Assembly (NCBI GenBank): GCA_937911525.1
Contig: CALDQK010000927.1
Span: 1 to 48,112 of the forward strand
Reading direction: 5' to 3'
DNA length: 48,112 bases
Origin: an uncultured bacterium
Lineage (GTDB): Bacteria > Planctomycetota > J058
Both the position numbers and the translations under genes were made by a program. Position 1 is the stretch's first letter, and every line of letters starts with the position of its first letter. The notes beneath the pieces are model-generated. The model saw only the letters and a list, made by a program, of their open reading frames with translations. It did not search any database and was not told the origin of the DNA. Below are positions 16,926-40,376 of the stretch, one piece after another.

Positions 16926-21034
<4,109 letters not shown>

Positions 21035-21038
<4 letters not shown>

Positions 21039-23899
21039 TTCCCACCTCCCTTCTCGTCGCGCTCACGAACGGGGACGAGGTTCATGCCGCAGATCGGGCA
21101 CTTCCCGGGTCCTGGCTGACGAATCTGGGGGTGCATGGAGCAGGTCCAGCCTCCCGTCGGCTCCGCGGGGCGCGAGCTGGGCTGCGGCGTGGGCGCGGCG
21201 TCAGCCGGAGGAGCTGCTGCCGGGTCGCGTCCGGAGGCCGGGATCGACTCGACCTGCCGTCCGCAGCGCAACATGCGCGACCCGAAGTAGGGGTTGAGGA
21301 CCTGCTCTCCCTCCTGCAGCCAATCTGCGCCGCGGTTCCCGAAGGCCATGGGGCAGTGGAAGCGCCGCACCGAGCGTTGTGGAAGGTGCCCATAGCGGGA
21401 GACGACGGCGGTCAGCTTCGTCGAGAGGGGCTCGAACGCCTGGCGCTGGGCCTCCAATCCGGCTGCCTGTTCGAGGTTTTTCACATCGGCGAGCAATCCT
21501 GGGAGACGAGTCTGACGCCAAACGTCGCGGTCGGCCGAGGGGAGCTGAGCGGGGTCGACGCCCTCGAGCGCTCGGCGCAGCTCCGGAGCGCGGGTGGCTC
21601 CCGTCGCCTTGTCCTCGGCCAGCTCCCGCTGGAGGTTGAAGTAGGCCGCCAGCGCTCCGTCCAGCTGGCGGCGGAACGTGTCGAGACTGGCGCCAGAGTC
21701 CTGCCCGGGCGTCGGCGTCGGGCTTGGGGCTGGCGACTCGGGCTGAGCAGGGGGCTGACCGTGGCCCTCATGTCCCGGCGGTGTGGCGTGGTCATGGCCT
21801 TCATGACCTGTCGGTGCCGGCGTGGCCGGCTGCTGCGGGCGCTGTGGCTCCTCCCCCCGGGCCGGGAAGGTGGAGCGGACCTCACCGCAGCGGAGCATGC
21901 TGGCCCCGAAGAACGGGTTCTGAACCTCCTCGCCCCGCTGCAGCCAGCTCGCACCCTTGTTGTCGCGGGCCATGGGGCAGAACGCCTCGCGATAGACCCC
22001 TTGGGCGTGCCCGAATTGGCGCTCCACGTCGAGCGCGGCCTCAGCCAGGTCGGCGAAGCTCGCGCGCGCCGCATCAATGCTCTCCGCCGTGGAAATCGCC
22101 TCCGCCGCGTCGCGCAGGCGCTTCGCTTCGCGCATCCAGGCCATGTGCCCGTCGCCGCTGACGAGCTTCATGTCGACGCCTTGGATCGCCGTCGCGAGGA
22201 TGCTGGCCGCGGTCTTGGCCGCGGCCAGGTCGTCCCCCGCCAGGGCCTCCTGCACGGCCAGGTAGCCCTCATAGACGGGGCGCAGCGCCGCCAGGAACGC
22301 TGGCGTCGCTTCGTGGCGCTGGGTTTCTCGGCGGCCCGCCGGCGGGAGCATCATGCTCGGCCGCGCCTCGATCTGAAGTGCGCTGTCGATCTTGAAGGCC
22401 CCCTTCGTCACGACTAGGTCGCCCTCCGAGAGCCCCGAGCGGACGATGTAGAAGTCGCCGGCCCGAGGGCCGAGGACGATCTCCTGGCCGCGAAACGAGG
22501 GCTGATCGCCTGGCTGCTTCACGTAGACCAACGAACGGACCCCGGTCCAGAGCACCGCCGACGCCGGCACGACGAGCGGAGGCTTGGCTTGTGGGTCGCC
22601 CGTCCGGTGCAGGGACTCCGCGCGGACGAGGGGCATGCCGCACTGGTCGCACTGGCCCTGGGCGTCCTTGATCACGTCCCAGTGCATGGGGCAGATCCAC
22701 TTGCCGACCAAGCTCGGATCCAGGGTCTGCCCCTCGGCCTGGAGGGGAGCCTTCAACACCGCGCGGACGAACATGCCGGGCTTCAGCCGCCCGTCGGCGT
22801 TGGTCACGTTCAAGCGGACCTTCACCGTGCGGGTGTTGCCGGTCAGGACCGGGTCCACGAACACCACCCGCCCTTCGAAGGGGACGCCGGGATAGGACTC
22901 GGTCTCGAACTGGACCGTCTGACCGTACCGGACCCAGGGCAGGTCCGACTCGTAGGCGTCTAGCTGGACCCACACCTGGCTCAGGTCCGCGATCGTGTAG
23001 ACGCGCTCGCCCGTGTTGACGTAGTCGCCGGTGTTCTTGTTCTTGTGGACGACGATCCCGCCGATCGGCGCGCGGATCGTGATGTGGTCCGAGGTCCGAC
23101 CGCTGCGCTCGATCTCCTCGATCTGATCTCGCCCCAGCCCCCACAGCCGCAGCTTCTCGCGGGCGGATGCCACGGTCTGGTCGGCCGTCTCGAGCATCAA
23201 GCGGCTGCTACTCGCCTGCAGCTTCTTGCGGGCCTCGATCGCCTGCAGCAGCTCCTCCTGGGCGCTCAGGAGCTGCGGGCTGTAGATCTCGACCAGGTGG
23301 TCGTCCTTGCGGACGAGGGTGCCTGTGTAGTCCACGTACATGCGGTCGAGCCGCCCGGGGATCCAGGCCGTGATGTAGTTGAGCCGGGTCTCGTCGTAGT
23401 CGACCTTGCCCACCATGCGGACGTCGCGGGCGACGTCGCGTCGCCGGACGGGCTCAGTCTCGATCTCGGCCAACGTCACCGCGTTTGGCTGCAGCTTCAG
23501 CTCACGGGGGCCCGAGTCGTCACCGCCCTCGCCGACGGGGATCAAGTCCATGCCGCAGATGGGGCACTTCCCAGGCTTCGGGCTACGGATCTGGGGGTGC
23601 ATGGAGCACGTCCACACCGTGGGCTTGTCGTCCGCCGCGGTCTGGCCCTCGGCCGGGGGAGGCGAGGCCTCGGGCGAGGTCAGTCGCCCCAGGAGCAAGC
23701 CGACGAGGAGAAAGACCACCGCGCCCGCGACCCAGCGGGCTCGCTGCCAGCGCGGGGCTTCCGGTTCTGCGGGAGTCGGCTGCGGCGTCGGAGCCTTCGG
23801 CTCCTCCGCGGAGGCGGTCGGCTTGGTGTCGTCCGCCGCGTCGGCCGGCGTGGTGTCGTCTGCCGAGTCGGTCGGCTTGGGTTCGTCGTGGTTCGTCAT
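21035..23899 (-). CDS. cusB: CusB-like periplasmic adaptor fused to three metal-binding zinc-ribbon motifs and two DUF3347-like modules (954 aa)
   Basis: The MFP core is recognisable (hairpin, lipoyl and beta-barrel segments, e.g. IRAPIGGIVV, VWVQLDAYESDL). Three zinc-ribbon motifs are present: WTCSMHPQIRSPKPGKCPICGMDLIPV, WICPMHWDVIKDAQGQCDQCGMPLV and WTCSMHPQIRQPGPGKCPICGMNLVPV. Two FxCPM..W(L)Q..NP(F/Y)FG..MLRCG modules and a His-rich linker (GHEGHDHATPPGHEGHG) are also present. Confidence 0.85.
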
Positions 23900-23907
23900 G
23901 AAGACTC

Positions 23908-25284
23908 CTAGCGCTCGGACCGCGGCTTGAGGTCGGTGCCGGTGAGCATTTCCAGCTCGGCGAACGAGCGGACGCGATCGGCGAGGGCCCGCTCGCGGGA
24001 CAGGTGGAACTCGAGGAGGACGCGCTCGGCGTCCAGGACATCCAGGAAGTCGCCAGCGCCCGCCTCATAGGCGGCGGATGTGGCTTTCAGGGACTGCTCG
24101 GCCTTGGGCACGAGCGAGTCCCGGTAGAGGCGGAGCTTTCGCTCCGCATCTCGGTAGTCGAACAGGGCGCGGGCCGCGGACGCTTCGAGCGAGTTCTCGG
24201 CGTCCGCACGGTCGAGCTCGGCGGCTCGGAGACGCGCCCGCGCCTCCGAGACCGAGGATTCGTAGCGGCCGAACCAGATCGGCAAGCTGATCCCGAACTT
24301 GGCGATCATGGCGTCGTCGCCGCTCCCGGAGGGACGAACGCCCATGGCGTTGCGCACGGCCGGGCCGGTCTCGATGTACTCGAAGCCGAACATGAAGTCG
24401 GGCAGGTAGCTCTGCCACGCCAAGTCGACGCCGCGCTCGCGAGCCGAGATCTTGCGGTTGAGCTCCGCGAGGAGCGGGCTGTGCCGCTCGATCAGGGCCA
24501 GGACTTCACCGTCGGAGACCGCCAGCGACGTGGCGGGGACCGACGACGGCCAGGGGATCTCGAAGTTGGCGGGGACGTCCAGGAGCGAGCGCAGCCGGGC
24601 CACGTGGGGCTTGCGGGCGTCGTTGAGCGTGGCCAGGCGATCTTCCAACCGCCCGATCTCGACCTGCGCCTTGATCACGTCCCGGTGGGCCGCCTGCGCG
24701 CCAGCGCGGAACCGGGTCTGGGCGACGGACTCCCAGTGCCGGACCAAGGTCAGGGTCTCGTCCGTGACGGCGCGCTCGCGGGCCAGGTAGTAGTAGTCGG
24801 CGTAGGCCCGCGCGACCTGATACACGATCCGCAGGCGGACCGCGTCGGTCCTGGCCCGCGTCGCCTCGGACTCCTCCAGCGCCATGGCGCTCCGCTCGGC
24901 GAGCTTGCCGGGCCAGGGCACCATTTGGGAGACGCCGAACCGGTGTCGCTGCGGGCCGACGCGGGTCTCGACCTGCTCGATGAAGCCGCCGTAGGTCAGC
25001 TCCGGGTCGGGCAGCGAACGCGCCTGCGGCACCCGCTCGAGGTCTGCGCGCCAGCGCTGGGACTGGGCCTGCAGAGCCGGGTTGCGGCGCAGCGCGAGGG
25101 CGACGTAGTCCGTCAGGGTGCTGGCCGACGTCAGCGGCGCGACCTCCTCGTTCATGGGGCGAAAGCTGGCGTCGAGCTCGCTCCAATCGGTCCAGGCCGT
25201 ACGCTCCCGGTCGTAGGCGCAGCCGGCCAGGGAGAGGGACAAGACGGTCAGCGCGCCTGTTAGCGCGCACACGGATCGCGACAC
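23908..25284 (-). CDS. cusC: outer-membrane efflux factor lipoprotein (TolC/CusC family)
   Basis: GTG start with an AGGAGA RBS. The lipobox is LSLAGC. The protein is 458 aa with two OEP-type helical repeats, and its stop lies 8 nt upstream of the adaptor gene's start. Confidence 0.85.
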   Translation of the reverse strand: MSRSVCALTGALTVLSLSLAGCAYDRERTAWTDWSELDASFRPMNEEVAPLTSASTLTDYVALALRRNPALQAQSQRWRADLERVPQARSLPDPELTYGGFIEQVETRVGPQRHRFGVSQMVPWPGKLAERSAMALEESEATRARTDAVRLRIVYQVARAYADYYYLARERAVTDETLTLVRHWESVAQTRFRAGAQAAHRDVIKAQVEIGRLEDRLATLNDARKPHVARLRSLLDVPANFEIPWPSSVPATSLAVSDGEVLALIERHSPLLAELNRKISARERGVDLAWQSYLPDFMFGFEYIETGPAVRNAMGVRPSGSGDDAMIAKFGISLPIWFGRYESSVSEARARLRAAELDRADAENSLEASAARALFDYRDAERKLRLYRDSLVPKAEQSLKATSAAYEAGAGDFLDVLDAERVLLEFHLSRERALADRVRSFAELEMLTGTDLKPRSER

Positions 25285-25398
25285 GGTGCGTTCTCCTGCA
25301 CGTGGAAGGACGGGCGAGACGTCTGCTCGAGCTCGGGACGGACGTCGTCCTGAGCGCGCAGACGCCGGGGGCGCCGGGCGCTGCCCGGCGTCAACCGC

Positions 25399-25824
25399 CT
25401 AGAGCAGGAAGACGCGGTGAAGTAGGTGCAGCCTGTGTTTGCCAGGCGGGGGTCGCGGCCAACACGCAGAAGTCTGCAATCGGCGGTCTTGGGGGCTCGG
25501 GACGGCGGGAGGAGCCTCGAAAAGGACGAGCGCGAGCTGCCCGCAGTACGGCTCGCCGGTCGCAGGCAGCTTGCTGCCCGCAGCGTCCCCGAGGTCGAGC
25601 TTCGGGCAGTCGGGGCAGTGGTCGGGGGACTGGGCGCGCTCGTTCCGGTCGTCGTCTGCCTGCATGGCGCAGCAACCGTGAGCGCGCGGCTGAGGAGCCT
25701 CCGCCTGGCTGCAGAACAGGCCGTGATCTCCGCCCTGGCAGGCGCAGAGGTCGAGCTGCCCGATTCCTCCCGGAACGAGCAGGGTGACGATCAGGAGGAC
25801 GCTCAGGAGTCGCGCGCCGATCAC
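25399..25824 (-). CDS. secreted Cys/His-rich small protein (putative)
   Basis: The GTG start overlaps the kinase stop (GTGA). A signal-peptide-like N-terminus (LLSVLLIVTLLVPGG) is followed by CAC, FC, HGCCAM and HCPDCP motifs. GC3 is high over most of the ORF. The C-terminal third is low-complexity, so the true end is uncertain. Confidence 0.45.
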   Translation of the reverse strand: MIGARLLSVLLIVTLLVPGGIGQLDLCACQGGDHGLFCSQAEAPQPRAHGCCAMQADDDRNERAQSPDHCPDCPKLDLGDAAGSKLPATGEPYCGQLALVLFEAPPAVPSPQDRRLQTSACWPRPPPGKHRLHLLHRVFLL

Positions 25825-27677
25825 GAGGTGGCCTCGCGATCGGCCGTCACTTGGGCGCGGGCCAGGCGAGACTCGTCCCGCGCGCGAGCGTACTGGCGCT
25901 GGCGCGCGCGGATGCGGATCTCCGAGATCGCGCTCACGGCGACGCGCGGGTAGCTCGCGAAGCGGGGCTCGTAGTCGAGCACAGCGTGGTCGGCGCGCGG
26001 CGCCGGTTCGGCAGGCGTGGGGTCCTGGGGAGGCTCTACCGCGGGGGCGGACTCGGCCTCAGCGGCAGGCCCCTCGTCAGGGACGAGCTCCCGGAGTCGC
26101 GCGCGCCACCACATGTGGGCCCGCTGCTGGGTCCACGGCTGCGCGACCGCGATCCGCGCCAAGCGCTCGTGCAGGTCATCCACCGTCTGCGGCCGCAGGC
26201 GCGGGGTCTTGGCCAGGCAGTTGATGATCAGCTCTTCCAGTTCGGGAGGGATCGCCTGCCGTGTCTTCGCGCTCGGGATCGGCGGTGGAGCATGGACGTG
26301 GTCGGCGATGATCCCGGCCGCGGTGGACTGCTCGAACACCAGGTGCCCGGTCAGCAGCCAGTAGGCGACGCAGCCGATCGCGTAGACGTCGGCGCGGGAG
26401 TCGACCTCCGCGGGGCTCTTGGCCAGCTCGGGGGCCATGAAGGCAGGCGTCCCCACGACGTAGTCCGCGTCGCTCACGCGGGGGTCCTGCTCGGCGGGCT
26501 TCATGCGCCGCACGAGGCCGAAGTCGAGGACCTTGACGAAGTCGACCTGGTTGCCGACGTGGCAAGCCATGAGGTTCGAGGGCTTGATGTCGCGGTGGAC
26601 GAGCCCCGCGGCGTGCGCCTCGGACAGCGACTCGCACACCTGCCGCAGGAGGTAGATCGCGCGGGCAGGGGAGAGCGGGCCGAAGCGATCGACCAGCTCC
26701 TCCAGGTCGATCCCTTCGAGGAGCTCCATGGCGTAGTAGAGGGTGCCGTCGTCGGTGACCCCGTAGTCGTAGAGGCTGACGGTGTGCGGTGAGGTCAGGG
26801 CCGCGATCGTCTGGGCCTCGCGCTCGAAGCGCGCCAGGACCTCGCTCCGATCCTGGAGCGGCGGCGTCCCGTGGGTGCCGGTCGTCGGCAGGTGGACGAG
26901 CTTGACGGCCGCGGGCCGTGCCAACAGGGCGTGCTCCGCGCGCCACACCTCGCCCATGCCGCCGCGCCCCAGGAGCTCGACGAGGCGGTAGCTGCCGAGC
27001 TGGCGAACGGTGTCCCGGGCGGTCGTGGCGGCCGAGCCGAGGTCGAACACGAGCCACGCCGGGACCACCGCGAGGCCAGCGCAGACGTAGTAGGGGAGGA
27101 ACGTCTCGGCCAACACGGGGAGCCGCGGCAGGGCCTGGCCTTCCGCGAGGCTCCACACGAAGAAGACCGCGGGCGCCGTGGTCGCGCAGAGGGTCGAGAC
27201 GACGAGGCTGCGCAGCGGCCGGCTGGGAATCAGCAGGGGGAAGAGGAGGATCCACACGGCCAGCCACGACAGCTTGACGCCCACGCCCTGGAGGAGCATG
27301 TCGCCGGAGAAGGCGCAGACCGAGAGCACGAGCGCGCCGAGGAGCTGGTAGGCGAGCCCGACCTTGAGGGTCGTCCGCGCCGGCAGCAGCCGGCGCCAGG
27401 CGACGACCGCCATGCCCAGCGAGAGCAAGAACAAGACGGTCTGGGCGGCCAGGAAGTGGGTGAGGTGGTGGGGGGCCTCCCACCCGAGGGGTCCGTAGAG
27501 CACGAACGCGCTCAGGACGAGCGCGGCGACGACGCCGGCGAAGACGGCGCTCACCAGCGCCAGCCGGCGGTTCGACTGCTCGAGGAAGCGGCTGTCGAGG
27601 AGCGCGGACGTCGCAGAGCCCGGAGACGACTTAGCGTCCCTGTCTTCGACTCGCTCGCAGACGACCCCGACTCTCAT
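25821..27677 (-). CDS. membrane Ser/Thr protein kinase with N-terminal multi-TM domain
   Basis: About 6-7 hydrophobic helices span aa 40-230. A Hanks-type kinase follows, with GRGGMGEVW, AAVKL, HRDIKPSNLM, DFGLV and GTPAFMAPE. The C-terminal tail is Pro/Glu-rich. Confidence 0.9.
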   Translation of the reverse strand: MRVGVVCERVEDRDAKSSPGSATSALLDSRFLEQSNRRLALVSAVFAGVVAALVLSAFVLYGPLGWEAPHHLTHFLAAQTVLFLLSLGMAVVAWRRLLPARTTLKVGLAYQLLGALVLSVCAFSGDMLLQGVGVKLSWLAVWILLFPLLIPSRPLRSLVVSTLCATTAPAVFFVWSLAEGQALPRLPVLAETFLPYYVCAGLAVVPAWLVFDLGSAATTARDTVRQLGSYRLVELLGRGGMGEVWRAEHALLARPAAVKLVHLPTTGTHGTPPLQDRSEVLARFEREAQTIAALTSPHTVSLYDYGVTDDGTLYYAMELLEGIDLEELVDRFGPLSPARAIYLLRQVCESLSEAHAAGLVHRDIKPSNLMACHVGNQVDFVKVLDFGLVRRMKPAEQDPRVSDADYVVGTPAFMAPELAKSPAEVDSRADVYAIGCVAYWLLTGHLVFEQSTAAGIIADHVHAPPPIPSAKTRQAIPPELEELIINCLAKTPRLRPQTVDDLHERLARIAVAQPWTQQRAHMWWRARLRELVPDEGPAAEAESAPAVEPPQDPTPAEPAPRADHAVLDYEPRFASYPRVAVSAISEIRIRARQRQYARARDESRLARAQVTADREATS

Positions 27678-27689
27678 GGCCGACCGACG

Positions 27690-27705
27690 TGCAACTCATG
27701 TGCCG
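27690..27705 (-). promoter_or_regulatory. sigma54 (-24/-12) promoter for the kinase-cus operon
   Basis: The minus strand reads cGGCAC-atgag-TTGCA with exact GG-N10-GC spacing. The -12 element ends 12 nt upstream of the kinase ATG (27677), and there is no SD between them. Confidence 0.65.
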
Positions 27706-27786
27706 ACCACCGCTCCCCAGCGCTTGTCGCCTTGTCGGGGGTTCTGCCTCCAGAGTGGGCAGGGCATCTCCAACTCCTGGAGTTCA

Positions 27787-27808
27787 GGCATTTCAGATCT
27801 GAAATGCC
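27787..27808. promoter_or_regulatory. perfect 22-bp palindrome GGCATTTCAGATCTGAAATGCC, candidate enhancer-binding-protein site
   Basis: Read directly. It is centred between divergent -24/-12 elements, about 80-95 bp from each. The same core recurs at 40514-40527, with degenerate copies near 40471, 44105 and 44254. Confidence 0.6.
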
Positions 27809-27900
27809 GGGCTGGGAGGCCATTCACGGCCACGTGACGCCGAGCAGGTCCGGGTCGCGCAATCGCGAGGCGTCGGCCGGGGTTGGCAGGGAGGTGCTGG

Positions 27901-27916
27901 CGGATCGAGACTTGCA
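27901..27916 (+). promoter_or_regulatory. possible weak sigma54 promoter for the channel gene
   Basis: cGGATC-gagac-TTGCA has correct GG-N10-GC spacing and a perfect -12 box but a poor -24 box. The predicted transcription start falls just before the GGAGG RBS of the 27940 gene. Confidence 0.3.
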
Positions 27917-27939
27917 ACTACGAAACGCGAGGAGGTCCG

Positions 27940-28671
27940 ATGGCTGAGCGAGTGATCGAAGCACGCCCCGAGGGGGAGGAGCGCTGCACCGTCCTGCTGG
28001 TCGCCCTGCTGGGGCTGTTCCTCCTATGGCCGCTCTTGGGCTTGGGTCACGTAGGCTCCGCGCTGCTCGACCTGTTCGTGTCCGCGGCGCTGTTGCTGAC
28101 CGTCCGCGCCCTGCGAGGCCCAGGGCGCGCCGTGTTCCGCGCTGCCCTCGCGCTGTCCGTCCTGGCGATCGTCACGGCTGCAGGGAGCCACCTGCTCGGG
28201 GTGGCTTCGCTCCTGCCGCTGGGCCATGTGCTGGGGCTGCTGTTCTTCCTGCTCACGGGCGGCACCCTGCTCAAGCGCGTCCTGGAGCCGGGCCCCGTCA
28301 CGGCCAACCGCTTGGAGGCCGCGATCTGCGGCTACTTGCTCATCGGGTTGGGGTGGGCGCTCGTGTTCTCCCTCATGGAGCACTTCCAGCCCGGGGCCTT
28401 TCACGACCCAGCCGGAGGATCCCCGGAGAGCCACGCCGTGCTGGCGGGCTTCCCGCACTTGATCTACTACAGCTTCACGACCCTCACGACGCTGGGGTTC
28501 GGCGACGTGGTCCCGCGGAGCCCGTTCGCCAGGTCCCTCAGCACCCTGGAGGCGGTGGTGGGTCAGCTCTACCTCGCGCTGCTGGTCGCCAGGCTGGTGG
28601 GCTTGCACATCGCCCGGATCGCGGCCAGCGAGCAGACCGAGTGCCCGGCCCACCGCGAACCTGCTCAGTGA
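27940..28671 (+). CDS. K+-channel-like pore protein (Ion_trans_2 type)
   Basis: ATG at 27940 with GGAGG 5 nt upstream. Multiple TM helices are present, with a selectivity-filter-like TTLGFGD after a pore helix (IYYSFTTLTTLGFGDVVP). Confidence 0.75.
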   Translation: MAERVIEARPEGEERCTVLLVALLGLFLLWPLLGLGHVGSALLDLFVSAALLLTVRALRGPGRAVFRAALALSVLAIVTAAGSHLLGVASLLPLGHVLGLLFFLLTGGTLLKRVLEPGPVTANRLEAAICGYLLIGLGWALVFSLMEHFQPGAFHDPAGGSPESHAVLAGFPHLIYYSFTTLTTLGFGDVVPRSPFARSLSTLEAVVGQLYLALLVARLVGLHIARIAASEQTECPAHREPAQ

Positions 28672-29159
28672 CAGGGCTCGCCGCCGTCCGAGCTGCTGAG
28701 CGTGTCGACGAACTTGAGCCCCAGGCGCTCCAGCTCGGTCCGCGGGTCTTCTTGCTTGGCCTTGCCCCTGCCCGACCCGCTCGGGACGTCTCGCTCGGTC
28801 AGGGCCCGGAGCATGTCGAAGGAGCTCAGGATCCCGTGGACCTTCCCGTCCCGCACGATCACGAGGTGCCGGACGTGGTACTTGGCCATGAAGCGGGCCA
28901 CGAGCACCACGTCGACGGTCTCGGGCACGGTGTAGACCCGCCGCTGCATGACCTCCTTCACCGGGTGCCGGGCCTCGTCGCCCTGAATGTCCACGAAGTC
29001 CGCGCAGGTCACGATCCCGGCGAGGTAGTCCCAGTCGTCGACCACGGGGAGGGCGTGAAAGTCCTTGCCGCCCAGGATGCGGCGCACGCGCGCGATCGGA
29101 TCGGTCTCTTTGACTTTCACGACTTCGGTCGTCATGAGGTCACTGACTTTCATTGGCAT
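28665..29159 (-). CDS. CBS-domain pair protein
   Basis: Two CBS-type repeats are present (VSDLMTTEVVKV...ALPVVDD...GIVT; VKEVMQRRVYTV...HLVIVRDGKVHGILSSFDML). This is the last gene of the long minus-strand operon. Confidence 0.8.
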   Translation of the reverse strand: MPMKVSDLMTTEVVKVKETDPIARVRRILGGKDFHALPVVDDWDYLAGIVTCADFVDIQGDEARHPVKEVMQRRVYTVPETVDVVLVARFMAKYHVRHLVIVRDGKVHGILSSFDMLRALTERDVPSGSGRGKAKQEDPRTELERLGLKFVDTLSSSDGGEPCH

Positions 29160-30075
29160 TCCTCTCGGGGGCTCCGCCCTCCTCGGCCAGCACCTCGCTC
29201 ACCGCCGCGGCGAGCGCAGGCGCCAGCCCAATCTCATTGGTCGAATGCTCGATCGTGTCGCAAGTCACGATCTGCGCCGGGCCCGCGCCCTCCAGGGCCT
29301 GGAGGCCGTCGCTGGCGAAGACGGCGTGGATCCCCACGCACACCGTGGGCGGCATTCCGGCGCGGGCCAAGTGGCGCAGCGTTTCGACCATGGTCCGCGC
29401 GGTGGAGATGATGTCGTCGACCAGCACCGGGGTGTGGTCGCGGTAGCGGTCCACCTCAGGCACCGAGACCTCAACGTCCTTGTCCCCCCGCCGGACCTTC
29501 TCCAGCACGATGTGTGGGGCGCTGGCGAGCTCGGCGACCGACGAGACCCACTGCTCGCTCTCGCTGTCGGGGCCGACGAGCACGGGGCGCTCGACGTGCT
29601 CCCGGATCCAGTCGGCGACGGCCGGGGCTGCGTGGACGACGCGCGTCGGGATCGTGTAGCCGGACTCGGCGAGGGTCGCGTGGCGGTGCAGGTGGGGGTC
29701 GACCGTCACGAGCCAGTCGACCACCCGCGAGAGGAAGCGGCCGAAGTAGAGGCTCGTGATCCCTTCGCCGCTGTGGAAGCGCTTGTCCTGGCGCATGTAG
29801 GACAGGTAGGGCGCGACCAGGCCGACCCGGCGCGCCCCCAGGTCGCGCGCAGCCTCGGCCAGCATGACGAGGGGGACGACCTTCTCGTCGGGCTCATGCA
29901 GCGTGCACACCAACACGACCTCGCGGTCCCGGACGTCCGTTTCCAGGCGCACGTAGGTCTCGCCGTCCGGGAAGCGGCGCACCTCGGCGCTCCCCAACCC
30001 GCCCTCGAGCGCGGTCGCCAGGTCCGCCGCGAAGGCGTCGTTCCCGGGGAGGGCGAACACCAGCGGGAGGCTCAT
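29140..30075 (-). CDS. ribose-phosphate pyrophosphokinase (PRPP synthetase)-like protein
   Basis: Motifs present are RFPDGETYV, a VLVDDIISTARTM PRPP-binding loop and LVGPDSES. The start overlaps the upstream stop as ATGA and has a GGAGGAAGC RBS. Confidence 0.75.
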   Translation of the reverse strand: MSLPLVFALPGNDAFAADLATALEGGLGSAEVRRFPDGETYVRLETDVRDREVVLVCTLHEPDEKVVPLVMLAEAARDLGARRVGLVAPYLSYMRQDKRFHSGEGITSLYFGRFLSRVVDWLVTVDPHLHRHATLAESGYTIPTRVVHAAPAVADWIREHVERPVLVGPDSESEQWVSSVAELASAPHIVLEKVRRGDKDVEVSVPEVDRYRDHTPVLVDDIISTARTMVETLRHLARAGMPPTVCVGIHAVFASDGLQALEGAGPAQIVTCDTIEHSTNEIGLAPALAAAVSEVLAEEGGAPERNANESQ

Positions 30076-31619
30076 GCTTCCTCCTTGCCGAGCCGGACGA
30101 GGTCAGCCTCGCGCTCGAGGTAGTCGAGCGCATAGCCCAGCTCGCCCTTGGCTTGAGCGTGGAGCGTGAACAGCGGCTGCCCTGCCTCCACCGAGTCGCC
30201 GATGCCCACGTGCAGCTCGAGGCCCGCCGCCGGGTCGGCAGGCGCCCCGGCGAACTTGGCCACGCGCGACAGCCGCCGGTTGTCGAGCTCGAGCACCTGC
30301 CCTGCGCGCGTGGCTTCGACGGTGTGCGTCAACGCGGCGCGCGGGGGCTCACGAAGCCCGCCCTGGGCTTCGCAGATCGCCTGGAACTTGGACCAAGCGG
30401 CCCCGTCCTCCAGGACCCGCCGAGCCACGCGCGGACCTCCGCCCGCGCTGATGTTCGGCGAGAACTCCAGGACGGCGCCGGCGACGTCCAGCGCGCGCTC
30501 ACGCAGGTCGGCGGGGGCGTTCGGGTCGTTCTGGAGCACCGCCAGGACGTCGCGGGCCTCCAGGGCCGGCCCAAACCCCCGCCCGATCGGGCGCGAGCCG
30601 TCGGTGAGGAGCACGCGGACGTCGAGGTCGACCAGGCGACCCACGCCCTCCAGCAGGCGCCCGAGCTGCTGGGCCGTGTCGACGCTGCGGACCTTGGCCT
30701 TGGGCCCGTGGGGAATGTCGATCAGCACGTGGGTGGACCCGGCCGCTGCCTTCTTGGAGAGGACGGAGGCCACGAGCTGGCCGAGGCTGTCGAGGTCGAG
30801 CGCCCGCTCGACCCGGATCAGGATGTCGTCGGCAGGGCTGAGGCGGGAGCTCCCTCCCCACACCAGGCAGCCCCGCTCCCGCTCGACGACCCGGCGCATG
30901 GCGGCCTCGTCGAGGTCGACCGGCGCCAGGGTCTCCATGACGTCGGCGGTGCCGGCGGGCGACGTGATCGCGCGCGACGACGTCTTGGGGATCGTGAGCC
31001 CGCAGGCGGCTGCGACCGCGACGACGATCGGCGTCGTCCGGTTCCCGAGGAGCCCGCCCACGCAGTGTTTGTCGACGACGAGGTCGCTCTGCCACTCCAG
31101 GCGCTGTCCCGTGTCGATCATGGCTTGGGTCAGGGAGACGACCTCGTCGAAGTCCAGGGTGGCGGCGCAGGCCGTGATGAACGCGGACAGGTAAATGTCC
31201 GAGAGGCGACCGGCGACCACGTCCTCGACGACGTGCCGCATGGCCTCGCGCCCGAGGCGCTTGCCGTGGATCTTGCCGCGGATCGCGCCGTGCGACTCCA
31301 CGGCGGGCGCGTGGCGGAGGGTGACCTGGGTGCCCTCGCTGGCGTCGAGGCGACCCCACGCCGCCTCGGAGAGGCCCGCCTCGCCCGGCGCGAGGAGCCC
31401 TCCTGGGGTCGTCTGGTTGACGGTCGCCAGGATCGAGTGCCCGTTGGCGCTCACGAGCACCCGCGAGCGCGCCTGGAAGCCCTCGGCCCGGCAGACATGG
31501 CAGTCGCTGGGCATGTAGATCACGGCCTCCTGGTGGGTGTCGATCCCCAGGCGGCGCAGGGTGAGGGGGTGCTGCCCGTCCCCGTGCGCGTCGCAGCAGG
31601 ATGGTTCCTGGGCGGTCAT
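30072..31619 (-). CDS. thymidine/AMP phosphorylase family protein (long archaeal-DeoA-like form)
   Basis: The true start is ATG 31619 (MTAQEPSCC...), overlapping the MBL stop as ATGA. The protein has DKHCVGGLLGNRTTPIVVAVAAACGL and SSRAITSPAGTADVMETL glycosyl-transferase-family-3 motifs. An extra N-terminal domain brings it to 515 aa. Confidence 0.75.
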   Translation of the reverse strand: MTAQEPSCCDAHGDGQHPLTLRRLGIDTHQEAVIYMPSDCHVCRAEGFQARSRVLVSANGHSILATVNQTTPGGLLAPGEAGLSEAAWGRLDASEGTQVTLRHAPAVESHGAIRGKIHGKRLGREAMRHVVEDVVAGRLSDIYLSAFITACAATLDFDEVVSLTQAMIDTGQRLEWQSDLVVDKHCVGGLLGNRTTPIVVAVAAACGLTIPKTSSRAITSPAGTADVMETLAPVDLDEAAMRRVVERERGCLVWGGSSRLSPADDILIRVERALDLDSLGQLVASVLSKKAAAGSTHVLIDIPHGPKAKVRSVDTAQQLGRLLEGVGRLVDLDVRVLLTDGSRPIGRGFGPALEARDVLAVLQNDPNAPADLRERALDVAGAVLEFSPNISAGGGPRVARRVLEDGAAWSKFQAICEAQGGLREPPRAALTHTVEATRAGQVLELDNRRLSRVAKFAGAPADPAAGLELHVGIGDSVEAGQPLFTLHAQAKGELGYALDYLEREADLVRLGKEEA

Positions 31620-33004
31620 GACGTGCCTCCTCTCCGGGGGAGTTCCACCCGGTCGCCGTGCTCGGGGACGGTGCAGGGCCACCCCAGCTCGTCTGCGATG
31701 CGCTTTCGCAGCCCCTCGGAGCCGGTCGGCTCGCCGTGGGTGATGAACGTCCGCAGGGGCGGGCGCTCGAACCCGCCCAGCCAGGCCAAGATCTCGCGGT
31801 AGTCGGCGTGTGCAGAGAGCCCGTCGATGCAGGCGACCTCTGCGCGGATCTTCACCTGCCCGCCGTGGACCTTCACGGACTTCGCGCCGCCCAGGAGTTG
31901 CGCTCCACGGGTGCCGCCGGCCTGGAAGCCAATGAACAGGATCGTCGAGTTGCGATCCGGCGCGATGTGCTTGAGGTGGTGGAGCACGCGACCGCCAGTG
32001 AGCATGCCGCTCGCCGAGAGGACGATCCGGGGGTCCTTTCGGAGGTTGAGCTCCTTCGACTCGTCCACGCTCCGCACGTAGCGAGCGACGTTGCAGGTCC
32101 GCTTGCAGGTCGGCCCGTCGAGCCGGTGCTCTCGCATGTGCTTGCAGTAGATCTCCATGGCCGAGACCGCCATGGGGCTGTCCAGGAACACAGGCACGTC
32201 CGGGATCCGCTCCTCCGCCATGAGCTTCTGCAGCAGGTAGAGCAGGGCGTGGGCTCGCCCGACGGCGAAGGTGGGAATGAGCACGGCGCCTCCACGCTCG
32301 CACGTCTCCGCGACGACTTCAGCCAGGCGCTCCTCGACGTCGGTCTCCTCATGGAGCCGGTCGCCGTAAGTCGACTCGACCACCAGGTAGTCCGGGCGCC
32401 CGCCCGCGGCGGGCGGATACATGACCGGGTCGTGTGGGCGGCCGAGGTCACCGGTGAACAGGATCGAGCGCTCCGGGCCCGTGAAGCGGACCAGGGCCGA
32501 CCCGAGGATGTGACCGGCCGGCGCGAGGCTGAAGCTGAGACCCTGCTCGAGCTGGACGGCCTCGTCGAAGGGGACGGGCTCGAACTGCTCCAGCGCCACC
32601 TCCGCGTCCTCCTGGGTGTAGAGGGGCAAGGCGGGCTTGTGCTTCGAGAAACCCTTCTTGTTCGCGTAGCGGGCGTCGGCCTCCTGAATGTGGCCGGAGT
32701 CCCGCAGGAGCAGGCCGCACAGGTCCTGGGTGGCGTGAGAGGCGTGGATCGGCCCCTTGAATCCGTTCTTGACCAGCAAGGGCAGGTAGCCGCTGTGGTC
32801 GAGGTGGGCGTGGGTGAGGACGACGGCGTCGATCGTCTTGGGATCGACGGGCAGGGGCGCCCAGTTGCGGAGGCGCAGCTCCTTCCAGCCCTGGAACAAG
32901 CCGCAGTCGACCAGGACGCGCTTGCCGGACCACTTCAGCAGGTACTTCGACCCGGTAACCGTCCCCGTGCCGCCGAGAAATGTGAGCGTGGGGTTAGCAG
33001 TCAT
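31616..33004 (-). CDS. MBL-fold beta-CASP hydrolase (RNA-metabolising metallo-beta-lactamase family)
   Basis: Motifs present are HAHLDHSG (HxHxDH), a beta-CASP-type middle region and a C-terminal GLSAHAD. The RBS is GGAGGAG. Confidence 0.8.
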   Translation of the reverse strand: MTANPTLTFLGGTGTVTGSKYLLKWSGKRVLVDCGLFQGWKELRLRNWAPLPVDPKTIDAVVLTHAHLDHSGYLPLLVKNGFKGPIHASHATQDLCGLLLRDSGHIQEADARYANKKGFSKHKPALPLYTQEDAEVALEQFEPVPFDEAVQLEQGLSFSLAPAGHILGSALVRFTGPERSILFTGDLGRPHDPVMYPPAAGGRPDYLVVESTYGDRLHEETDVEERLAEVVAETCERGGAVLIPTFAVGRAHALLYLLQKLMAEERIPDVPVFLDSPMAVSAMEIYCKHMREHRLDGPTCKRTCNVARYVRSVDESKELNLRKDPRIVLSASGMLTGGRVLHHLKHIAPDRNSTILFIGFQAGGTRGAQLLGGAKSVKVHGGQVKIRAEVACIDGLSAHADYREILAWLGGFERPPLRTFITHGEPTGSEGLRKRIADELGWPCTVPEHGDRVELPRRGGTS

Positions 33005-33013
33005 GGCTCCTCC

Positions 33014-33304
33014 TCACTGAGCGGCGCACTGCGGGCACTCCTGCACGATCAGCCGGCACTTCGAGCAGTAGTGCACAGTCCCAGGCGGGGTGATCTCGTT
33101 GTTGTAGTCGACCTCGGTCTCGCACTTCGGGCACACGTGGCGATCGACGGTCAGAACCTCGAACACCGTGGTGCGGGTCTGCTCGCTGCAGCTCGGACAC
33201 ACCGGGCTCGCCTCCTCCTTCACTACCTGCCCCGGCGTCGCGCAACCTGGCAGACCCAGGCCGATCGCGAGCGCGGCCGCCAGCGTGAACGTCCTCCAGC
33301 TCAT
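33014..33304 (-). CDS. small lipoprotein with four CxxC pairs (8 Cys)
   Basis: The N-terminus is MSWRTFTLAAALAIGLGLPGC (lipobox), followed by CPSC, CPKC, CSKC and CPQC. A GAGGAG RBS is present. It is a paralogue of the 43686-43991 product. Confidence 0.7.
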   Translation of the reverse strand: MSWRTFTLAAALAIGLGLPGCATPGQVVKEEASPVCPSCSEQTRTTVFEVLTVDRHVCPKCETEVDYNNEITPPGTVHYCSKCRLIVQECPQCAAQ

Positions 33305-33314
33305 GAACTTCTCC

Positions 33315-34157
33315 TCACGGCGCCATGGCCGCGATGTGGCGCTGCGAGAGCACCTCGAGCATTTCCTGCGTGATCCCCTCCTGGCGAGCCTTGCGGAGCA
33401 CGCGCTCCTGCTCGGCGATCCGCCGCTCCGCGGACTCGTGGGCGCGGGTCATGCGCGCCAGGCGAACGCTGGCTTCTGCCCGCGCGCCTTCGCAGGCGGC
33501 GTGCAGGATGCGCGCGTGAGCGAGGAGCGACCGCGCGCGGGTGTGCGCGACGTCGGCGGGAGCGAACTGAGCCAGGGGTCGGGCGAGGGCTGCCCGCGCC
33601 TCCGCCAGCCCCGCGAGGTCGCTCCCGACGTCCCAGGAGGTCTCGACCTGGGGGCTCCCGCCGCGGGAGACCCCGGTGGCGGAGACGATGCACAGGCGCG
33701 TCCTGAGCCCCGCGTCCCCGACCTCAGCCTCGACGCGCTCGGCGAGCTCGACGGCGGCGGCCATGCTGGACGGCGCTGGCTCCTCCAGGCGGGGGACGTC
33801 GTCCGGGAGCAGGTCCAGCAGCCGCGCCCCACACGCCGCGAACAGGACGACCTGCTGCTCCTCGACCACCTGGAGCGCGGCGTCGGCCACCAAGCGGTTG
33901 AGACGTCCGCAGAGCCCGAGGTCCGTCCCCAGCGCGAGGACCGCGCAGGTGGCGGGGGGACGACGCCGGTGGCGGTCTTCCCAGCGCTGGACGCGCTCGT
34001 GGAACGCCTGGCTCCAGGCGAGCTGACGGCGCGTGTGGGCGACCTGCGCGTTCCAACGCAGGACCTGTGCCGCCGCCAGCGACCGGGTGGCGTGGGCGAC
34101 GTCGCGGAAGCTCCGCCACGCCTTGAGTCGCTCCTCCAGCGCCCGGACGGCCTTCAC
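33315..34157 (-). CDS. atpG: N-ATPase gamma subunit
   Basis: The 280-aa ORF is the last gene of an atpDCQRBEFAG-ordered cluster. Its GTG start overlaps the alpha subunit stop. A gamma-like helical N-terminus and C-terminus are present. Confidence 0.75.
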   Translation of the reverse strand: MKAVRALEERLKAWRSFRDVAHATRSLAAAQVLRWNAQVAHTRRQLAWSQAFHERVQRWEDRHRRRPPATCAVLALGTDLGLCGRLNRLVADAALQVVEEQQVVLFAACGARLLDLLPDDVPRLEEPAPSSMAAAVELAERVEAEVGDAGLRTRLCIVSATGVSRGGSPQVETSWDVGSDLAGLAEARAALARPLAQFAPADVAHTRARSLLAHARILHAACEGARAEASVRLARMTRAHESAERRIAEQERVLRKARQEGITQEMLEVLSQRHIAAMAP

Positions 34158-35689
34158 GTGGTCCTCCCCGCTGGCTGCGGCGCCAGCGCTGTCTCGGCAG
34201 CCTCCTTCAGGGCGTCGAGCTGGGCCTGGGGCGGGAGGTGCCCTTGCTCCAGCTCGCTCCAGGCGGCGGGATCGCGCTCACGCATGGCCGCCAGCGCCCG
34301 ATCCAGCGCGTCGTCCAGCTCGTCGACGGGGATCTGCGCGACAGCGTCGGTGTCGAGCGCGAGCACCTGCGCCACGGACTCGGCCCACCCCAAGGCTTCG
34401 CCTCGCTCCTGGCGCAACGCGCGGCGCACGCGACGCCCCCACTCGATCAGCTGCTGCGCCTCGCTCTCCAGGCGAGAGCCGAAGCGGGCGAAGACCTCGA
34501 ACTCGAGGAACTGGGCGTATTGGTTCTTCAGCGGCCCCGCCACGCGCTTGAGCGCCTGGGGCTGGGCCTTGCCGCCGACGCGCGAGACCGAGAGGGACAC
34601 GTCCACGGCCGGGATCTGGTCGGCAGCGGCCAGCGCCGTGTCGAGCCGGATCTGCCCGTCGGTGATCGACACGATGTTCGTGGGGACGAAGGCGGAGAGA
34701 TCCCCGGCCTGGGTCTCGACGATCGGGAGCGCGGTCAGGGAGCCCCCGCCGCTGGCGCGTCCGAGCTGGGTCGCCCGCTCCAGCAGGCGGGCGTGGGCGA
34801 AGAACACGTCCGCCGGGAAGGCCTCGCGACCTACGGGACGGCCGAGGAGGAGGGCCAGCGAGCGGTGGACGTGGGCGTGGGTCGTCAGGTCGTCGTAGAC
34901 GATCAGCACGTCGCGCCCGGCGCGCATCAGGTCCTCGGCCATGGCGGTGGCGCTGTAGGGGGCCAGGTGGATCAGCCCGAGCGGGTCGTCGGCGTCCGAG
35001 GTGACGACGAATCCGCGCTCCAGCACGCCAGCCGCGCGCAACCACTCGACGTTGGCGGCGACCTCGGCGCCGCGGCGGCCAACGGCGACGTAGATCGCGA
35101 CCACGTCGGGGTCCTGCGCGGCGAGGATGTCCAGGCAGAGCTCCGTCTTGCCGGTCGAGCGGTCTCCGACGATGAGCTGTCGCTGGCCCCGGCCCACGGG
35201 GATCATGGTGTCGAGGACGAACACGCCGGTCCGCAGCGGCCGCGAGACCGGCTCCCGCTCCTCGAGCGCGATCGGCGGCCCGTCCACCAGCACCCGGCGC
35301 CGGGCCCGCAGCGGCCCCTGGCCATCGCGTGGTTGGCCCAGCGGGTCGACGACCCGGCCGATCAGCTCGGGTCCCGCCGGGACGTCGAGCACGCGCCCCA
35401 GCCGGCGTACGGGGTCGCCGGCCTCGACCTGCTCGGGGTCACCCATGAGCACGAGGCGCATGACGTCGCGGGTGATCGCGTCCACCCGGGCCGCCACGCC
35501 GTTCACGTCCAACAGCTCTCCGGCGAGGGGCTCGTCCAGCCCGGTCGCCAGGGCGACCCCGTCACCCGCCCGGCTCACCCGCCCCAAGCGCACCAGGTCG
35601 ACGCGGGGGCGGGCGCGGTCCAGCCCGCGGCGAAGGCGCTCCAGCGCCTCCGCGCCTGACTGCTGGTGCTCCTGCTCGCGCTCGGTCAC
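34154..35689 (-). CDS. atpA: N-ATPase alpha subunit
   Basis: Walker A GDRSTGKT, DDLTTHA and typical alpha-subunit length and layout. Confidence 0.9.
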   Translation of the reverse strand: MTEREQEHQQSGAEALERLRRGLDRARPRVDLVRLGRVSRAGDGVALATGLDEPLAGELLDVNGVAARVDAITRDVMRLVLMGDPEQVEAGDPVRRLGRVLDVPAGPELIGRVVDPLGQPRDGQGPLRARRRVLVDGPPIALEEREPVSRPLRTGVFVLDTMIPVGRGQRQLIVGDRSTGKTELCLDILAAQDPDVVAIYVAVGRRGAEVAANVEWLRAAGVLERGFVVTSDADDPLGLIHLAPYSATAMAEDLMRAGRDVLIVYDDLTTHAHVHRSLALLLGRPVGREAFPADVFFAHARLLERATQLGRASGGGSLTALPIVETQAGDLSAFVPTNIVSITDGQIRLDTALAAADQIPAVDVSLSVSRVGGKAQPQALKRVAGPLKNQYAQFLEFEVFARFGSRLESEAQQLIEWGRRVRRALRQERGEALGWAESVAQVLALDTDAVAQIPVDELDDALDRALAAMRERDPAAWSELEQGHLPPQAQLDALKEAAETALAPQPAGRTT

Positions 35690-36414
35690 GCGGGCTCCTC
35701 GGCCGCGTTGGCCTCGTCCAGCTCGGTGAGCCAGCGCTTCAAGGCGGCCCCGGCGCTGGCGTCGACCTCCAGGTCGCGGAAGGCGAAGCGGACGCCGCCG
35801 ACCAGCTCCGGGTCGGCGTCGGTCTGGAGCGCGCAGCGGTCGTGGAGCACCTTGCCGACGACCTGCCGCACGTCGTCAGGGTCGGCGTCCGGGCTGGTCC
35901 AGAGGCGGACGGTGGCGTCCTGCGGCAGCGCCCCCGCCTCCAGGAGACGCCGCGCGCCCTCTCGGGCGTAGGCCGTGGCGATGCTCGTCTCCGACATGCC
36001 CGCCACGACCTTGGCGGCGCCCTGGACGGAGAGGGCCACCACCTGATCGCGCAGACTCTCCAGCGAGCGGAGGCGGGCGAGCTCGAGGTCCGTCTGGTGG
36101 CGTTCCCGCGCCTGGTCCATGTCGCGTCGAGCGGCGGCGACGATGTGCTCGGCCTTCTCCTCGGCCTCCCGGCGGACCTCCGCTCGCAGCCGCTCCCCCT
36201 CCTGCTCGGCGCCCGCGATCTTGGCCCGGTACTCGTCGCGCAGCGCGGCCGCCTCGGCCTGCTGCGCGGCGAGCTCGGCGTTGCGCTGCTCGATCTCGGA
36301 CCGGCGCGCGGCGAGGGCCTCGCGGACGGGTCGGAACAGGAAGCGGCCGAGCAGGACCATCAACACCACGAAGTTGAGGAGCTCGAACAGGACCAGGCGC
36401 CAGTCGATGGACAC
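35686..36414 (-). CDS. atpF: N-ATPase b subunit with delta-like C-terminal extension
   Basis: An N-terminal TM helix is followed by a long charged helix and an extra ~90-aa C-terminal domain. There is no separate atpH in the cluster. Confidence 0.75.
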   Translation of the reverse strand: MSIDWRLVLFELLNFVVLMVLLGRFLFRPVREALAARRSEIEQRNAELAAQQAEAAALRDEYRAKIAGAEQEGERLRAEVRREAEEKAEHIVAAARRDMDQARERHQTDLELARLRSLESLRDQVVALSVQGAAKVVAGMSETSIATAYAREGARRLLEAGALPQDATVRLWTSPDADPDDVRQVVGKVLHDRCALQTDADPELVGGVRFAFRDLEVDASAGAALKRWLTELDEANAAEEPA

Positions 36415-36423
36415 GTCGTCGAC

Positions 36424-38024: not shown

Positions 38025-38028
<4 letters not shown>
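37639..38028 (-). CDS. atpQ: N-ATPase AtpQ (AtpI-like) membrane protein
   Basis: The GTG at 38028 overlaps the epsilon stop (GTGA). A Pro/Glu-rich N-terminus is followed by two TM helices (VGTLGWLIALPPVLGAFLG; ITWAIGLLFLGLGMGGYFFW). The ORF-track N-terminal extension lies inside atpC. The start is uncertain. Confidence 0.6.

Positions 38029-40376
<2,348 letters not shown>

Follow-up and report, generated by a model that had tools for sequence, protein, structure and literature searches.

The subject of this analysis is a 48,112-bp stretch of DNA with a G+C content of 69.8% (the whole of contig CALDQK010000927.1 of assembly GCA_937911525.1, from an uncultured bacterium), hereafter called the window, and in particular the perfect 22-bp palindrome GGCATTTCAGATCTGAAATGCC, which lies there between two divergently oriented gene blocks. 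On one side of the palindrome is an operon that encodes a membrane Ser/Thr kinase and a CusCBA-like efflux system, and on the other a gene for a K+-channel-like protein. Further along the window follow a long operon led by a DUF2231 gene, which includes an N-ATPase-type rotary ATPase and enzymes of nucleotide metabolism, then a histidine kinase with an NtrC-type activator, and finally two genes for exported proteins rich in Cys and His. These assignments, made by Pfam and NCBIfam, agree with those of a preliminary description of the same DNA. We propose that the palindrome and four related sites are enhancers through which the activator would control a sigma-54-dependent regulon, concerned probably with copper or silver stress.

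Palindromic sites and -24/-12 elements of the window

The preliminary description placed the palindrome at 27787-27808, and this position proved exact. It is the longest perfect palindrome of the window, and a length of at least 22 bp was reached in one of 100 first-order Markov simulations. Its 14-bp core was said to recur only in the two other promoter-type intergenic regions of the metal island. With up to three mismatches allowed, the core is present in five copies (beginning at 27791, 40471, 40514, 44105 and 44260), where 0.24 would be expected, and none of 100 shuffled sequences yielded five. The scan of the window with a position matrix, trained on 23 sites from the orthologous loci described below, gave a bimodal result: the five sites score 25-37 bits, and the sixth-best position scores 12.4 bits, which is the level of shuffled sequence, so that the claimed restriction to these regions holds. 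All five sites fall inside the divergent intergenic regions 27678-27939, 40377-40598 and 43977-44366 (regions 1, 2 and 3), which together make up less than 2% of the window. The consensus of the palindrome is GGCW-TTKCAGATCTGMAA-WGCC, in which TT.CA and TG.AA are invariant, with a variable 4-bp centre and variable flanks. Another perfect palindrome, the 16-bp CCTCGAGCGCTCGAGG at 44229-44244, lies 16 bp upstream of site 3b and is one of only three in the window, besides that at 27787-27808, that reach 16 bp.

Table 1. Putative enhancer sites, candidate promoters and genes of the window
Feature	Positions	Strand	Basis and remarks
Enhancer site 1	27787-27808	none	GGCATTTCAGATCTGAAATGCC; perfect 22-bp palindrome; 36.9 bits; between two divergent promoters and common to both
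Enhancer site 2a	40471-40484	none	TTTCAGGTCTGCAA; 25.5 bits; 43 bp from site 2b
Enhancer site 2b	40514-40527	none	TTTCAGATCTGAAA; 29.1 bits
Enhancer site 3a	44105-44118	none	TTTCACGTCTGAAA; 27.7 bits; 59.5 bp from candidate promoter 44038-44053
Enhancer site 3b	44260-44273	none	TTTCACATCTGAAA; 26.7 bits; 51.5 bp from promoter 44317-44332
Predicted promoter, Ser/Thr kinase and efflux operon (strong)	27690-27705	-	CGGCACATGAGTTGCA; 82 bp left of palindrome; -24 GG 93.5 bp from palindrome centre
Predicted promoter, channel gene	27901-27916	+	CGGATCGAGACTTGCA; 93 bp right of palindrome; -24 GG 104.5 bp from palindrome centre; -24 element non-consensus
Predicted promoter, DUF2231-led operon	40402-40417	-	TGGCCTGAAATGTGCA
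Predicted promoter, sensor kinase and activator (strong; autoregulation)	40567-40582	+	AGGCACTCCAATTGCA; exact GGCAC-N5-TTGC
Candidate promoter, Cys-rich lipoprotein gene (weak)	44038-44053	-	TGGGCCGAGGCGTGCG; least secure of the six
Predicted promoter, exported YHS/TRASH His-rich protein	44317-44332	+	TGGTCCCGAAGCTGCT
Efflux operon, whole	16414-27677	-	Pfam
Small HMBD protein	16414-16902	-	Pfam
CusA-like RND (resistance-nodulation-division) pump, 1370 aa	16926-21038	-	Pfam
CusB-like adaptor with HMBD and DUF3347	21035-23899	-	Pfam
Outer-membrane factor	23908-25284	-	Pfam
141-aa Cys-rich protein	25399-25824	-	Member of efflux operon
Membrane Ser/Thr kinase	25821-27677	-	Pfam
K+-channel-like protein (Ion_trans_2)	27940-28671	+	Pfam
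DUF2231-led block, about 16 co-directional genes	28665-40376	-	Pfam, NCBIfam
HAMP histidine kinase (sensor kinase)	40599-42137	+	Pfam
NtrC-type enhancer-binding protein (activator)	42134-43483	+	Response_reg, Sigma54_activat, AAA_lid_14, HTH_8 (Fis-type); GAFTGA loop
Small Cys-rich lipoprotein	43686-43991	-	Left of region 3
Exported YHS/TRASH protein with His-rich tail	44367-45101	+	Right of region 3
CorE-like (ECF44) sigma factor	45203-45763	-	Sigma70_r2, r4_2; CQC between regions 2 and 4.2; Cys-rich C-terminal tail FCRMCAEHGCVDCSC
P1B-ATPase	45864-48110	+	YHS, two HMBD domains, CPC, DKTGT; divergent from the sigma factor

Six candidate promoters of the -24/-12 type face the genes that flank the three regions, in accord with the earlier statement that the copies of the core adjoin such elements. 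Both elements described beside the 22-bp palindrome, a good one on the minus strand and a weaker one with TTGCA on the plus strand, were recovered at the indicated distances. In a weighted match to TGGCACG-N4-TTGCW over the whole window the minus-strand element shares the first place with the promoter of the sensor kinase, and the exact string GGCAC-N5-TTGC occurs only in these two elements in 96 kb of strand, each less than 100 bp from a site and facing the adjacent gene. The plus-strand element is followed by AGGAGG and then by the ATG of the channel gene at 27940, and its deviant form GGATC-N5-TTGC is found again ahead of the channel orthologues in two other contigs (L003 and L010). A further -24/-12-like element, TGGGCCCCGACTTGCA at 43490-43505 on the plus strand, lies 7 bp past the stop codon of the activator gene and faces the 3' end of the lipoprotein gene, which is convergent; no enhancer site is near it.

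The distance from the end of the -12 element to the start codon of the Ser/Thr kinase is 12-13 nt in five contigs (window 27677-27705, L003 2756-2784, L007 7395-7422, L012 1142-1170 and L129 7334-7362), and that to the start codon of the sensor kinase is 13-16 nt (window 40567-40601). Since these distances are so short, the predicted sigma-54 transcripts of both kinases would be leaderless or carry leaders of 2-6 nt without a ribosome-binding site. Normal AGGAGG-type ribosome sites precede the channel, DUF2231 and YHS genes.

The kinase-activator pair and its orthologous loci

The domains attributed to the activator in the preliminary description, including the GAFTGA loop and the Fis-type helix-turn-helix, were confirmed (Sigma54_activat, PF00158, E = 4.5e-64; HTH_8, PF02954, E = 1.8e-09), and the nearest solved structures are those of NtrC4 and NtrC1 from Aquifex and of ZraR (1ojl, E = 2.8e-74). 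Pfam recognised no sensor domain in the N-terminal region of the kinase. The alignment of seven orthologues reveals that the periplasmic domain between its two transmembrane segments (encoded at 40599-41220) contains the invariant residues C70-x3-C74, H141, H145 and W158. These invariant Cys and His residues, together with the copper/silver-type cargo of the neighbouring operons, suggest that the kinase probably senses Cu(I) or Ag(I).

The protein search with the activator sequence retrieved a discrete group of 13 orthologue clusters with 59-90% identity, after which the identity drops to about 53%. The segment GWSRK.AA..LGISTTSLWRR of the helix-turn-helix is present in 13 of the 13 clusters, with the part LGISTTSLWRR, which belongs to the recognition helix, invariant; the next-closest activators differ there and have LG[VL]S.SSLYRK. 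Contigs with the orthologous kinase-activator pair could be fetched for 11 of the 13 clusters, and nine independent loci (L001, L003, L005, L007, L009, L010, L012, L129 and L130) include DNA upstream of the kinase gene. L131 and L132 begin within the kinase gene and stand outside the motif test. Gene order is shuffled among the contigs, and the companion families are the same: the CusCBA-like pump, the Ser/Thr kinase, the channel, DUF2231, CBS and YHS/TRASH proteins, as well as a CPC-type P1B-ATPase, an extracytoplasmic function (ECF) sigma factor, and a phosphorylase with a phosphoribosyl pyrophosphate (PRPP) synthetase. L003 additionally encodes a multicopper oxidase.

In nine of the nine loci the motif TTKCA-N4-TGMAA occurs in intergenic DNA ahead of companion genes, upstream of conserved -24/-12 promoters. 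The 172 kb of orthologous loci contain 23 matches with at most one arm mismatch, and in L005, L129 and L130 one or more copies have a single mismatch in one arm. L007 and L012 have a site in the same spacer between the Ser/Thr kinase and channel genes. As a control we used 80 loci around non-orthologous activators from a scan of a genome collection (at most 48% identity among the matches listed), and their flanks with at least 60% G+C contain no match in 465 kb.

The promoters are conserved in a gene-specific manner. The element ahead of the Ser/Thr kinase is kept in L003, L007, L012 and L129, with 12-13 nt to the start codon in each case, and a strong element stands 13-16 nt before the sensor-kinase start in every orthologous locus that covers this region; there GGCAC-N5-TTGC has an equivalent in most of the fetched loci and is replaced by GGCAT in L001 and L009 and by GGTCC in L005. 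The form TGGCC-N6-TGTGC ahead of DUF2231 is kept in L001, L012 and L130, and the YHS/TRASH promoter form TGGTYC-N5-YTGC, a downstream TAG and the ribosome site CAGGAG are all kept in L003, L005 and L129. In this way three of the four promoters that are weak by consensus retain their own deviant form, gene by gene, in diverged contigs. L003 (12470-12572) and L010 (8550-8651) have in common a conserved leader (..TTCGCCGYGAGGAGCTGACGGTCAGC..) upstream of the outer-membrane-factor gene, which opens the efflux operon in these contigs.

The distances between sites and promoters, measured from the site centre to the first G of the -24 GG in the promoter faced, fall into six classes (47.5-51.5, 58.5-62.5, 70.5, 79.5-83.5, 89.5-93.5 and 104.5 bp) around about 49.5, 61, 70.5, 82, 92 and 104.5 bp, which are spaced one helical turn (about 10.5-11 bp) apart. 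At a period of 10.5-11 bp, a Rayleigh test on the first 23 site-promoter pairs yields R = 0.65-0.68, with p of about 1e-5. The sites would therefore be located about 75-130 bp upstream of the predicted transcription starts and on one face of the helix, and spacing on one face is what is required for looping between an enhancer-bound AAA+ activator and the sigma-54 holoenzyme. The matrix and the phasing classes were already fixed when L129 and L130 were fetched, and these two contigs hence serve as a prospective test. L129 has sites of 27.1, 25.2 and 23.6 bits before a channel-kinase-activator operon, a YHS/TRASH gene and a Ser/Thr kinase gene, respectively. L130 has two sites in the spacer between DUF2231 and the sensor kinase, separated by 43 bp exactly as at 40471 and 40514 in the window, with the expected promoter forms on both sides. 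Taken by themselves, the seven distances from these two contigs yield R of about 0.8, with p of about 0.005-0.009. The suggestion of the preliminary description that the activator is the candidate reader of the palindrome is thus backed by the footprinting over nine contigs, the control, the phasing and the two contigs fetched later.

The proposed regulon and competing explanations

It is almost certain that the palindromes function as protein-binding sites. We estimate the probability at roughly 0.8 that the protein in question is the activator encoded at 42134-43483, for which they would serve as the upstream activating sequence in driving the sigma-54 promoters. According to the scenario we propose, the HAMP kinase would sense a periplasmic signal, most likely Cu(I) or Ag(I), through the domain with the invariant CxxxC and two His residues, and would phosphorylate the receiver domain of the activator. 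Dimers of the activator would then occupy the palindromes, form an AAA+ ring, loop to the sigma-54 RNA polymerase at the -24/-12 promoters and drive the formation of the open complex. The five sites of the three divergent regions would act on six promoters, whose outputs would be the operon of the Ser/Thr kinase and the CusCBA-like pump, the K+-channel-like gene, the DUF2231-led N-ATPase/nucleotide operon, the kinase-activator operon itself and the genes of the two exported Cys/His-rich metal-binding proteins; each gene block is inferred to form one transcript.

Several observations weigh against this proposal. The evidence is drawn entirely from sequence, and rpoN is not present in the 48-kb window. 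Four of the six promoters (27901-27916 and 44317-44332 on the plus strand, 40402-40417 and 44038-44053 on the minus strand) are poor matches to the consensus, which is that of E. coli, and that at 44038-44053 has no support from orthologous loci. Many enhancer-binding proteins work from two or more sites, but region 1 contains only one palindrome, and paralogous YHS genes in L007 and L131 lack a site. The statistics of phasing count orthologous promoters as independent and use promoter candidates chosen by the analyst. The loci were picked via the regulator, so that regulator and motif are to some extent bound to occur together; this selection leaves the negative control, the positions of the sites and their phasing unaffected. 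Finally, a search of metagenomes with the 20-mer GCATTKCARRTCTGAAATGC alone found 35 loci, none of them with the regulon, which indicates that the sequence by itself is not diagnostic of its binder. This search is insensitive, since the strict 20-mer matches only two of the 23 known sites and the collection does not include some of the source samples.

Many of the loci found by this search reduce to a few lineages. L098 (2606-2625) and L110 (7582-7601), on contigs of 64-65% G+C unrelated to the window, carry one orthologous 20-bp palindrome site about 60-85 bp upstream of genes of the VIT1 family (Fe/Mn transporters), inside a conserved non-coding stretch of about 120 nt. This element has no Rfam match and no -24/-12 element, and it could be the operator of another regulator or an RNA element. 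L104 (1045-1174) and L114 (596-725) share an orthologous site after a tetratricopeptide-repeat gene, 105.5 bp from a near-consensus sigma-54 promoter, TGGCACGCCTGCTGCA, that precedes a pyridoxal-phosphate enzyme of Cys/Met metabolism; as the spacing is in the same class as in the window, this may be a related enhancer in another lineage. The activators encoded beside the 20-mer in L119, L105 and L099 do not have the recognition helix of the window activator.

If the palindromes are bound by a protein, it could be a factor encoded elsewhere, such as a CRP/FNR-type dimer or a metal-responsive repressor, for which they would be operators on sigma-70-type promoters, with the -24/-12 matches being incidental. 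CRP/FNR-type dimers bind 5-N4-5 palindromes, and helical phasing is also observed at class I promoters. The TTTCA-N4-TGAAA geometry of the sites is the same as that of FNR-type boxes, the occurrence of identical 20-mers in such unrelated contexts as the VIT1 genes implies that other proteins are presumably able to read the sequence, and the binding of the local activator is itself deduced from sequence. However, none of the fetched orthologous loci encodes such a factor, while the activator is always present and is the only DNA-binding protein common to all of them. The gene-specific -24/-12 elements stand at fixed distances from start codons across diverged contigs, and the exact form GGCAC-N5-TTGC occurs in the window only in two copies, both of which flank the sites. 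A scan of the three intergenic regions for sigma-70-like hexamer pairs, although weak for a non-model, high-GC phylum, gave none. We consider this explanation improbable, and we would give considerably less credence still to the palindromes acting as RNA or DNA hairpins, i.e. as terminators, attenuators or repeats similar to repetitive extragenic palindromic elements, rather than as protein-binding enhancers. Perfect palindromes can indeed fold; eight of the 35 metagenomic loci belong to one AT-rich lineage in which the 20-mer lies between A- and T-runs and resembles a bidirectional terminator, and in several further contigs it follows a stop codon. In the window, however, five of the five sites lie between divergent gene starts, where no gene ends, and upstream of the predicted -24 elements in both directions, so that they would stay untranscribed. 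The variable centre and flanks combined with the invariant TT.CA and TG.AA form the pattern of contacts made by a dimer and not that of a conserved stem; besides, the three intergenic regions contain no terminator-like hairpins, and neither the window nor 20 metagenomic loci with the 20-mer had a relevant match in Rfam.

A different question is whether the sites, while being genuine sites of the activator, serve the response to a signal other than copper or silver, e.g. a different thiophilic metal, redox or thiol stress in the periplasm, or envelope stress in general. The signal is deduced only from the cargo and from the CxxxC and His residues of the sensor; the rotary ATPase, K+ channel, protein kinase and nucleotide/glycogen enzymes among the predicted targets suggest a broader response to ion or energy stress, and ZraSR is now regarded as an envelope-stress system (PMC4987338). 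On the other hand, HMBD, YHS and TRASH domains, the CusCBA-like pump, the CPC-type ATPase and multicopper oxidase constantly accompany the kinase-activator pair, and we regard a signal other than these two metals as unlikely, albeit a serious contender. The reading of the cargo as being of the copper/silver type is based on these domains, on the CusA-like pump and the CPC-type P1B-ATPase, and on the multicopper oxidase of L003.

Among the systems described previously, CorSR of Myxococcus xanthus appears to be the closest functional analogue of the predicted regulon. It comprises a HAMP kinase and a sigma-54 activator encoded within a copper gene cluster, activates copper-tolerance genes from predicted sigma-54 promoters, and acts alongside a CorE-type ECF sigma factor, which has a P1B-ATPase under its control; no enhancer site of CorR is defined in that study (PMC3707914). 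The window likewise has a CorE-like sigma factor beside its CPC-type ATPase, and this sigma factor displays the hallmarks of the ECF44 group, i.e. CxC between regions sigma-2 and sigma-4.2 and a Cys-rich C-terminal domain (PMC4937300). The two systems differ in their phyla (Myxococcota versus Planctomycetota) and in their targets, which are a multicopper oxidase, CopA and a cytochrome for CorSR, and CusCBA, the channel, the kinase and the rotary ATPase in the window. Myxobacterial activators are at most 46% identical to that of the window among the matches listed, and they lack a homologue of the sensor domain, metal genes nearby and the motif.

ZraSR (HydHG) of E. coli and Salmonella is another metal-linked system, in which divergent sigma-54 promoters, including its own, are served from one intergenic region; its signals are Zn/Pb and envelope stress, its regulon consists of little more than zraP and zraSR, and the enhancer motif of ZraR is listed as not known (PMC4987338, Table 1). 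The window resembles it in having an NtrC-type regulator with a divergent promoter layout and predicted autoregulation, and differs in that no ZraP-like partner was seen there. The upstream activating sequence of E. coli FhlA, CATTTCGTACGAAATG (PMC4987338, Table 1), contains the same half-site CATTTC/GAAATG as CATTTCAGATCTGAAATG in the window, both being enhancers of sigma-54 activators (predicted in the case of the window), and the helix-turn-helix segments of the two proteins have K.AA..LG...T.L..RM..LGI in common, with LGISTTSLWRRMTELGI and LGLKRTTLLSRMKRLGI agreeing at the positions T.L..RM..LGI. However, the spacer between CATTTC and GAAATG is 4 bp in FhlA and 6 bp in the window, and FhlA is a formate-sensing activator with GAF domains and not a response regulator, with 41% identity to the window activator over the AAA+ and helix-turn-helix parts. 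We treat this resemblance as a lead and not as a demonstrated relationship.

Regulators of the CusRS/CopRS type are OmpR-type proteins, which bind direct repeats next to sigma-70 promoters and involve neither an AAA+ ATPase nor sigma-54. They have in common with the role proposed here the periplasmic sensing of Cu/Ag that turns on a CusCBA-type pump and periplasmic metal-binding proteins, and contrast with it in that the window is predicted to use an NtrC-type regulator and sigma-54. In its design the proposed regulon conforms to the classical sigma-54 two-component type, and it has not been described previously: in the literature we found no prior description of the motif, nor of such a system linked with N-ATPases, DUF2231 or Planctomycetes.

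Cargo of the proposed regulon and its significance

Homologues of the CusA-like pump carry the source annotation Cu(I)/Ag(I) efflux. Its relatives are cluster members with at least 90% identity and one 87% relative from metagenome-assembled genomes of Planctomycetota, followed by proteins of cultured Tautonia and Rhodopirellula at 66-68%, and on this basis the contig is placed in Planctomycetota and a myxobacterial origin is rejected. Orthologues of the channel adjoin the kinase-regulator pair in L003, L007, L010 and L129. The DUF2231-led block, inferred to be one operon because its genes overlap or abut, starts with a His-rich DUF2231 membrane protein and continues with the genes of the N-ATPase type; it also encodes a beta-CASP metallo-hydrolase, an archaeal-type thymidine/AMP phosphorylase, a PRPP-synthetase-like protein and a CBS protein. 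The order of the ATPase genes, beta-epsilon-gene1(AtpQ)-x-a-c-b-alpha-gamma without delta, matches that of N-ATPases (alternate F1F0). The ATPase_gene1 model (TIGR02230) matches with 49.7 bits against a cut-off of 46.7, and the 96-aa open reading frame in the position of AtpR has no family match. The NCBIfam alt_F1F0 models are the best match for beta and b and come within a few bits of the best for a and c. All subunits score below the curated alt_F1F0 cut-offs (e.g. 583 bits versus 752 for beta), and therefore we call the enzyme N-ATPase-type and not a certified member of the family.

Beyond region 3 the matrix scan found no enhancer site above noise between the ECF sigma factor and the P1B-ATPase (45764-45863), and thus the ATPase is probably under the control of the sigma factor and not of the two-component system. 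At the other end of the window, the metal island is bordered by a prophage-like block (1-16300) with a major capsid protein at 1531-2619 (PF03864, phrog_29); for the remaining large plus-strand open reading frames of this block, which reach 1179 aa, searches of Pfam, NCBIfam and PHROG gave no significant match.

L001 (1-8199) and L009 (1-8198) contain, after the DUF2231 gene, an operon for a V/A-type ATPase (subunits A, B, D, I and the c-ring), which is preceded by two genes for YHS proteins and occupies the same slot, with the same enhancer and promoter form, as the N-type ATPase of the window (33315-40376). L012 has only the phosphorylase, PRPP-synthetase and CBS genes after DUF2231. The presence of two unrelated rotary ATPases in one regulatory slot suggests that the response includes ATP-driven ion pumping. 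It is tempting to speculate, and we do so only tentatively, that an auxiliary rotary ATPase (N-type here, V/A-type in the sister lineages) might be an integral, co-regulated part of the response to copper/silver stress, together with the K+ channel, the membrane Ser/Thr kinase and the enzymes that mobilise nucleotides and glycogen. If this were true, ATP-driven ion pumping would sustain the ion gradient that powers the RND pump while metal stress cripples respiration, and N-ATPases would gain a physiological role beyond salt tolerance. Their role is still debated, and metal stress provides a concrete condition under which it can be examined.

Membership in the predicted regulon provides a strong "guilt by association" link to metal stress for DUF2231, for the HMBD, YHS and TRASH proteins, for the K+ channel and the Ser/Thr kinase, and most of all for the rotary ATPase of N- or V-type. 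The analysis also supplies a putative enhancer motif for a copper system of the sigma-54 type, whereas the CorSR study (PMC3707914) defines none and the motif of ZraR is listed as not known (PMC4987338, Table 1). For this uncultured lineage of Planctomycetota, a phylum whose regulation is almost unexplored, the proposed arrangement of a 14-22-bp enhancer, six promoters and one sensor-activator pair would amount to a testable regulatory code.

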